Shown piece after piece: positions 62,901-64,000 of a stretch of 64,000 nucleotides of DNA (position 1 is the stretch's first letter; every line of letters begins with the position of its first letter). Origin of the DNA: Escherichia coli. GTDB lineage: Bacteria > Pseudomonadota > Gammaproteobacteria > Enterobacterales > Enterobacteriaceae. The position numbers are program-made. The stretch is from the NCBI RefSeq assembly GCF_045037415.1, contig NZ_CP173438.1. One strand, written 5' to 3'.

Positions 62901-64000
62901 CTCTTGTTGCGAAAGCGCATTTTGCATTAAATGTTTTTTCAATGAGACGCCTCCATGATGACGACTCACTACACCACGCTTTTGCAACCACGCTAAATCT
63001 GTCCGAATCGTCTCTTTGGTAACAGAAAAATAGTTAGCTAAATCGCTAACACTGCACTCATCCTTGTTGCGAAGTAACCGGACAATATATTCACGACGGG
63101 TATCCCGATACATAAGTCTTCCTTTTTGATTTTATTATCACTAAAAAAGAAATTGTTATCGGGATTTTTATCAAGAAAAAAACAGGCAAGCAAAAACAAA
63201 CAAAAATATTATTCAGGCGAAACGATTCACCTAAAGATAATTAATATTTAGCTTACAAATAAAATAAAATTAATTATCCGTAACATATATAAATAACGTC
63301 AGGTAACGAAAGTAAGAGACTCCCCCTTCTTTCTTATTATTCACATCCAGCCCTAAACTCGCTCGGGCTGGCCCCGGTGCATTTTTTAAATACTCGCGAG
63401 AAATAGAGTTGATCGTCAAAACCGACATTGCGACCGACTGTGGCGATAGGCATCCGGGTGGTGCTCAAAAGCAGCTTCGCCTGACTGATGCGCTGGTCCT
63501 CGCGCCAGCTTAATACGCTAATCCCTAACTGCTGGCGGAACAAATGCGACAGACGCGACGGCGACAGGCAGACATGCTGTGCGACGCTGGCGATATCAAA
63601 ATTACTGTCTGCCAGGTGATCGCTGATGTACTGACAAGCCTCGCGTACCCGATTATCCATCGGCGGATGGAGCGACTCGTTAATCGCTTCCATGCGCCGC
63701 AGTAACAATTGCTCAAGCAGATTTATCGCCAGCAATTCCGAATAGCGCCCTTCCCCTTGTCCGGCATTAATGATTTGCCCAAACAGGTCGCTGAAATGCG
63801 GCTGGTGCGCTTCATCCGGGCGAAAGAAACCGGTATTGGCAAATATCGACGGCCAGTTAACCCATTCATGCCAGTAGGCGCGCGGACGAAAGTAAACCCA
63901 CTGGTGATACCATTCGTGAGCCTCCGGATGACGACCGTAGTGATGAATCTCTCCTGGCGGGAACAGCAAAATATCACCCGGTCGGCAGACAAATTCTCGT

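Follow-up and report, generated by a model that had tools for sequence, protein, structure and literature searches.

Does araC end prematurely in some strains of Escherichia coli, or is it the reference strain K-12 that carries an extended form of the gene? The question is raised by a stretch of 64,000 nucleotides of contig NZ_CP173438.1 (hereafter the window), in which the AraC frame closes earlier than in K-12 and is separated from yabI by five genes. The preliminary description of this DNA proposed that an island had been inserted at, or had replaced, the last codons of araC and had thereby created a slightly shortened C-terminus. We consider it probable that two alternative haplotypes of old date exist for the araC-yabI interval and that the window represents one of them, the 281-residue end being native to it and the K-12 form being the derived one. 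The sequencing of the genes in the 1980s already revealed that the AraC proteins of Salmonella typhimurium and E. coli K-12 differ by 11 residues in length. Our search of the literature found no description of the cluster, of the araC-yabI junction in E. coli or of the AraC tail.

The features on which the analysis relies are the following, with coordinates of the window:

63337..64000, minus strand: 3' part of araC, about codons 62-281 and the stop, from the open reading frame (ORF) call and the match to the full-length gene of strain SK1144 (L001)
63340..63354, minus strand: araC codons 277-281 (R-A-G-C-E), left edge of the haplotype-specific sequence
63334..63339, minus strand: tandem stops TAA TAA, the araC stop (63337-63339) and a second in-frame TAA (63334-63336)
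63308..63333, minus strand: decayed hairpin directly 3' of the araC stop (folding energy -12.5 kcal/mol, z -1.4)
63202..63235, minus strand: terminator-like hairpin and T-run found by a consensus scan about 100 nt past the araC stop, candidate araC terminator
63170..63204, minus strand: T-rich motif TGTTTGTTTTTGCTTGCCTGTTTTTTTCTTGAT of the araC-rikA intergenic region, conserved in the alignment with Klebsiella spallanzanii (L086) and a metagenomic relative (L088)
61881..63113, minus strand: rikA-like gene, first of the cluster, encoding a DeoR-type HTH / PfkB sugar kinase fusion of 410 aa (ORF, annotation, Pfam)
60932..61855, minus strand: gene of the dihydrodipicolinate-synthase (DHDPS) family, class I aldolase type, 307 aa (ORF, annotation)
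59924..60877, minus strand: tctC, tripartite tricarboxylate-type transporter (ORF, annotation)
59438..59875, minus strand: tctB, same transporter (ORF, annotation)
57941..59428, minus strand: tctA, same transporter (ORF, annotation)
57766..57940, minus strand: tctA-yabI intergenic region, haplotype-specific, with homology to its counterpart in K. spallanzanii and L088 and none to the araC-yabI spacer of K-12
56993..57757, minus strand: yabI (DedA family), core gene that borders the cluster at the end away from araC

The minus-strand ORF 63337..63969 is araC, which runs off the window end at 64000, the start of the full gene being expected around 64182, beyond the window. The DNA of SK1144 matches window positions 60001-64000 exactly and contains a complete araC of 846 nt encoding 281 aa, which confirms, together with the ORF, the stop reported at 63337..63339. 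The PGAP annotation gives the same 846 nt in SK1144, E2348/69 and PE144, and places the gene divergent from araBAD in these three annotated contexts. The protein of the window ends in ...RAGCE. The K-12 MG1655 gene has 879 nt and encodes 292 aa (ending in ...RAGCEEKVNDVAVKLS), its extra C-terminal residues being EKVNDVAVKLS; the extension of roughly ten residues that had been given for K-12 is thus real and amounts to 11, the length by which the AraC of the window is the shorter.

Over codons 1-276 the body of araC is about 97% identical to K-12 at the nucleotide level, with scattered polymorphism up to nt 759 and then 69 identical nucleotides. These are followed by synonymous differences at nt 829, 831, 834 and 837, all within codons 277-279 (AGG GCT GGA vs CGT GCC GGT), so that codons 277-281, which end in TGT GAA in both, encode the same amino acids with 4 of 15 nt different; counted in 60-nt bins, the last bin holds 7 differences and the others 0-4. 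Codon 282 is TAA in the window, as in most Enterobacteriaceae, and GAA in K-12. Past codon 281 and the stop, homology with K-12 is wholly gone, the post-stop DNA of the window (TAAGAAAGAAGGGGGAGTCTC...) being unrelated to the K-12 tail (GAAAAAGTGAATGATG...). Collinearity with K-12 stops at araC codon 277 (63354) and returns at 57765, identity restarting on the yabI side at GGCACATTATG, 8 bp upstream of the yabI ATG. The haplotype-specific segment therefore covers 57766-63354 (about 5.6 kb), and its K-12 counterpart 128 bp, made up of 51 nt from the end of araC and a further 77 nt of spacer. On two points this alignment bears out the preliminary description: K-12 AraC does not end at AGCE, and the junction lies inside araC.

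In a megablast of window positions 63000-64000 against 5426 complete E. coli genomes, most genomes align only from window position 63333 upward. Of the 5426, 4333 contain the K-12 junction and 1066 the short-araC junction, which together account for 5399 of the 5400 genomes with an araC match. Among the latter group, 580 genomes possess the cluster (80% or more of the 1-kb junction query covered) and about 487 a decayed version; 569 of all matching records reach at least 99% identity to the query. An assembly or sequencing artefact is ruled out by the occurrence of the same junction in 1066 genomes. The rikA-like gene adjoins araC in the 580 genomes, including SK1144, SE15 and E2348/69, and whether strains carrying the island all have the same araC 3' end, as had been asked, is answered in the affirmative for every one of them. 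The decayed version is found in PE144, UM146, the type strain ATCC 11775 and ATCC 25922, among others, and constitutes a third arrangement of the interval, described here from PE144:

L002:4141-6100: third araC-yabI arrangement
L002, about 4225-4278: orphan araC 3' fragment, adjoining yabI

In PE144, araC switches to cluster-type sequence at nt 829 and ends in TAA TAA. Behind it lie a hairpin that is both intact and strong (GAAAGAAGGGGGGGAACCCCCTTGCTTTCTTC; -25.7 kcal/mol, z -5.3), a spacer sharing about 88% identity with the window's, the first rikA-like codons, an IS630 remnant and two hypothetical ORFs (282 and 140 aa) without Pfam or PADLOC match. Last come an orphan K-12-type araC 3' fragment (...TCTTTT joined to GTGCCGGTTGTGAAGAAAAAGTG..., nt ~826-879), a K-12-type spacer and yabI. 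The PE144-type junction reads ...GTGTCTTTT joined to GTGCCGGTTGTGAAGAA.... The orphan fragment implies that, precisely at codon 277, cluster-type DNA was joined at least once to a chromosome whose araC had 292 codons. Such an event could be accounted for by break repair primed from the end of araC, or by homologous recombination on one side combined with an illegitimate join on the other. The insertion into a 292-codon gene that had been proposed did therefore occur in the PE144 type, but the window haplotype has no orphan araC fragment and possesses its own yabI-side spacer.

For a comparison across genera, araC loci were fetched from one genome per species and each gene was read to its stop. 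Among these loci, a 281-aa AraC ending in ...RAGCE, with the stop at codon 282, was found in Salmonella enterica subsp. arizonae, in about 12 genomes of the Citrobacter freundii group, in Kluyvera (five), Pseudocitrobacter (three), Kosakonia (seven), Yokenella and Cedecea, and in further genera. Only the C. amalonaticus/sedlakii group and Escherichia (K-12 type, E. albertii and two Escherichia sp.) yielded the 292-aa form. The AraC of Salmonella enterica and of the C. freundii group resembles that of the window in its length, its stop at codon 282 and its last 30 residues, which are identical; these genomes differ in that yabI comes directly next and that the post-stop DNA is a homologue of the K-12 tail, whereas cluster-haplotype DNA occupies this place in the window.

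This homology indicates how the K-12 tail arose. In S. arizonae and C. werkmanii/braakii the araC stop TAA is followed by AAAGTGAATGATG...TGTCATAA, the homologue of the K-12 tail-coding sequence, and the start of yabI lies at an equal distance in the TAA and the K-12 forms; in Kluyvera, Pseudocitrobacter and Kosakonia, too, the sequence is TAA AAAGTAAAG. The K-12 gene reads GAA AAA GTG AAT GAT GTA GCC GTC AAG TTG TCA TAA and that of S. arizonae TAA AAA GTG AAT GAT GCG TCC GTA AAG ATG TCA TAA. The tail is thus homologous to the post-stop DNA of relatives and differs by one base at the stop codon, the pattern of stop-loss extensions in general, in which a single-base change prolongs the frame to the next in-frame stop. 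Since the homologous DNA lies behind the stop in Salmonella and the C. freundii group, K-12 appears as the extended form, and its tail would be best explained by a one-base stop loss, TAA to GAA, a direction favoured by parsimony (two changes vs three) within the restricted range of genera sampled.

Post-stop DNA close to the K-12 tail is found in S. arizonae (L026:9844-9880), where the frame is still open (KVNDASVKMS, then TAA), and in C. werkmanii/braakii (L008 and L010). The near-intact state of this post-stop tail suggests a recent change of codon 282 or a constraint on the DNA itself, for instance as yabI promoter. Two contigs of about 6.5 kb attributed to Photorhabdus namnaonensis (L005) and Xenorhabdus szentirmaii (L006) encode an AraC 99% identical to that of E. 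coli with a 292-aa end of the K-12 type; an araC-P_BAD vector or contaminating E. coli DNA is their probable source, rather than a native gene.

The cluster of the window is itself shared with other Enterobacteriaceae. The closest homologues of the rikA-like protein outside E. coli are those of K. spallanzanii (81% aa identity) and of an uncultured enterobacterium (76%), both of which display the succession araBAD, araC (281 aa), the same five genes, yabI and thiQPB; the Pfam domains TctC, TctB and TctA were found in the K. spallanzanii orthologues. Gene order, orientation and AraC length in K. spallanzanii are thus those of the window, and the spacers are homologous on both sides. The araC-rikA spacer shares with K. 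spallanzanii and L088 the TGTTTGTTTTTGCTTGCCTGTTTTTTTCTTGAT motif and the ribosome-site region ATAATAAAA...AAAAGGA, and the tctA-yabI spacer the elements TAAGTAAAATCCTG..ACTGCTAAATT...ATTGAC...GCACAATCC...GGGCACATTATG. The two arrangements differ in that nucleotide identity is only 66-76% and that the post-stop hairpin is intact in K. spallanzanii and decayed in the window. As the 281-residue RAGCE end is common in Enterobacteriaceae and the five-gene cluster with a 281-aa araC is syntenic in K. spallanzanii and L088, the claim that an insertion created the shortened C-terminus is contradicted.

Base composition and divergence point to an old arrangement. The G+C content is 38-49% across about 57750-63340 (cluster about 45%) against about 53-58% in the flanks, and the cluster lies about 6-8 points under its flanks in all three lineages (E. 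coli, K. spallanzanii and L088). As the same offset is present in K. spallanzanii and L088, the low G+C is no sign of recent acquisition. The nucleotide identity of the cluster genes of E. coli to those of K. spallanzanii is 66-76% (mostly 72-76%), and that of the core genes on the flanks 73-80%; this similar divergence and the shared G+C offset would fit a long residence of the cluster at this site, not a recent insertion. Within the cluster, tctB has both the lowest G+C (37.7%) and the greatest divergence from K. spallanzanii (63% aa identity).

The araC-yabI interval contains five metabolic and transport genes only, with no integrase, other mobility gene or tRNA, and no direct repeat pairs the two cluster boundaries (57766 and 63354), where only short direct or inverted matches at chance level turned up. 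Atypical base composition is consequently the one property that it has in common with classical genomic islands, which also carry an integrase or mobility gene and flanking repeats. It resembles the accessory cassettes commonly found between core genes without mobility genes and replaced by way of their flanks, and is special only in that one boundary lies five codons inside a core gene. The name RikA, which stems from one E. coli annotation, was retained as a family label only, as the sole RikA paper found deals with Salmonella STM3547, a gene with other neighbours.

When some 55 araC loci of enterobacteria were screened for a donor, the cluster was present in none except L049, a 100% E. coli-like contig, and no donor closer than about 75% nucleotide identity was found outside Escherichia. 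L049 is an 8.4-kb contig of the Citrobacter sp. metagenome-assembled genome HRGM_Genome_0066, with araC, rikA-like and DHDPS products 100% identical to those of the window and a YabI at 99% identity; in all probability E. coli DNA was mis-binned here.

Further indication of age comes from L004, labelled E. coli SCPM-O-B-8794, whose araC is only 90.6% identical to K-12 and encodes a 281-aa AraC. Its gap (9844-18230) contains a chaperone-usher fimbrial operon of about 8 kb directly after the araC stop and, at 17868-18230, a 363-bp remnant, at 89.8% identity to the window type, that comprises the 3' end of tctA and the DNA upstream of yabI in its cluster-type form. This remnant implies that the cluster is old in the genus, either because it predates the split of the lineages or through an exchange of long ago. 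The strain itself probably represents a different Escherichia species.

The AT-rich promoter region that had been placed immediately past the stop is present, but further on: the decayed hairpin comes first and the terminator-like hairpin next. The hairpin at the same position is strong in the PE144 type and in K. spallanzanii (-21.3 kcal/mol, z -4.8). The window's version folds no better than shuffled sequence does, and it was rejected as a terminator there. The terminator-like sequence at 63202-63235, which is kept in the PE144 type, would be a better candidate for the araC terminator in the window haplotype. The T-rich motif at 63170-63204 is kept in K. spallanzanii and the metagenomic relative though the remaining spacer has diverged, and is probably a promoter or operator of the rikA-like cluster. 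An Rfam scan of 62900-63700 gave no match at E values up to 1.

Taken at the strength given above, the two-haplotype explanation would run as follows. In the cluster haplotype, araC would end at codon 281 and be followed by its own 3' region and by the rikA-like, DHDPS-family and TctCBA genes. In the cluster-less arrangement, the change of codon 282 from TAA to GAA would have let translation read through 11 more codons, in what had been the 3' UTR, before another in-frame TAA halts it. Homologous recombination in the genes on either side would have exchanged both haplotypes within Escherichia, which would account for an araC body that is E. coli-like up to codon 276. Some observations stand against this explanation. 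All cluster-less Escherichia sampled (K-12 type, E. albertii and two Escherichia sp.) have the 292-aa protein, and the short end could accordingly have arrived secondarily with the cluster, which comes near to what the preliminary description had proposed. The orphan fragment of the PE144 type and the failure to find a closer donor outside Escherichia also count against it.

Of the other explanations, the one that survives best, although we hold it to be doubtful, makes the cluster and the 281-aa end the ancestral state of E. coli; the K-12 type would have spread later by recombinational replacement with an allele lacking the cluster, resembling that of E. albertii for instance, with deletion of the cluster and gain of the 292-codon end. 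The age of the cluster in the genus inferred from the L004 remnant, its synteny in Klebsiella and the difference of about 12% in the spacer between the two cluster-type haplotypes of E. coli, which implies a deep coalescence, speak for such an ancestry. They have to be set against a K-12-type spacer which is homologous to that of Salmonella and Citrobacter and present in E. albertii, hence at least as old, against the K-12-type recipient revealed by the PE144 orphan fragment, and against the share of K-12-type genomes, 80%.

It seems unlikely, to a somewhat greater degree, that the last five codons of araC are a recurrent integration point in Enterobacteriaceae, at which unrelated cargo would regenerate the RAGCE-stop each time and of which the orphan araC fragment (about 487 genomes) would be the footprint, for instance of break repair primed from the araC 3' end. 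The cargo cited for this reading comprises the five-gene cluster, the two-gene cassette with its IS630 remnant, the fimbrial operon of the divergent Escherichia and a reverse transcriptase of Yokenella. The latter gene (Yokenella regensburgei, L044:9827-10771, minus strand) lies between araC and yabI, encodes 314 aa with an RVT_1 domain (E 2e-17) and a YGDD motif, and overlaps the araC stop by 17 nt with its 3' end; it may be a retron-type element, another cargo at the same spot.

Very improbable, and already largely refuted, is the accidental truncation in which a horizontally acquired island entered a 292-codon araC of the K-12 kind within its last codons, or took their place, and supplied the stop. 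It correctly anticipates where homology with K-12 ends, within codons 277-282, and could call upon the G+C of the cluster (45% vs 53-55% in the flanks), upon the orphan araC 3' end beside yabI in the PE144 type as the footprint of an insertion at codon 277, and upon the 292-aa AraC of the cluster-less Escherichia relatives. A chance breakpoint, however, would not be expected to yield replaced DNA that re-encodes exactly residues 277-281 and stops where most Enterobacteriaceae AraC stop. Moreover, the same cluster follows a 281-aa araC between homologous spacers in K. spallanzanii and L088, and the window haplotype shows no orphan fragment, direct repeats or mobility genes. A breakpoint in the last araC codons can consequently be maintained as the place where collinearity with K-12 is lost, and not as an accidental breakage, the 281-aa end being native to the haplotype. 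As for a plain nonsense polymorphism, GAA to TAA at codon 282 and unrelated to the cluster, it has in its favour the single base (G to T) separating this codon from K-12 and is refuted by the alignment, given post-stop DNA that is homologous to neither the tail nor the spacer of K-12, four synonymous differences immediately upstream and a short end always linked in E. coli to cluster-type downstream DNA (5399 of 5400 genomes accounted for), which leaves it next to no credibility.

The domain content of the protein gives no reason to regard the 281-residue form of the two-haplotype explanation as impaired. The 281-aa AraC displays PF02311 AraC_binding (E 1.9e-26) at residues 22-160 of the full protein, of which the window holds residues ~62 onward, PF12833 HTH_18 at residues 201-278 (profile positions 2-79 of 80), and PF00165 HTH_AraC ending at residue 277. 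Pfam coverage of the HTH is identical in the 281-aa and the 292-aa K-12 AraC, and PDB 2K9S, the only solved structure of the AraC DNA-binding domain, comprises residues 175-281. K-12 AraC has the same domains and the same place divergent from araBAD; it differs by its 11-residue tail, which lies outside both the Pfam HTH and 2K9S, and by the lack of a cluster before yabI. Based on the full HTH domain, the extent of 2K9S and the natural occurrence of a 281-aa AraC in most genera, the function of the 281-aa protein is expected to be unchanged and a loss of function appears unlikely. From the complete domains and the 281-aa AraC of other genera, regulation of P_BAD by arabinose is likewise predicted to operate through this allele. 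In line with the 2K9S construct, the 11-residue tail of K-12 is probably dispensable.

The 281-residue AraC is an ordinary, common allelic variation and not a damaged gene; the allele is probably neutral and its biological importance small. About one in five E. coli genomes, including ATCC 11775, ATCC 25922, E2348/69 and SE15, carries this family-typical form. It is K-12 that has the unusual allele, and "truncated relative to K-12" is not to be taken as damage. The gap between araC and yabI is a variable slot, and its old cluster-bearing form shared with Klebsiella aids the characterisation of the rikA-like/DHDPS/TctCBA cluster.
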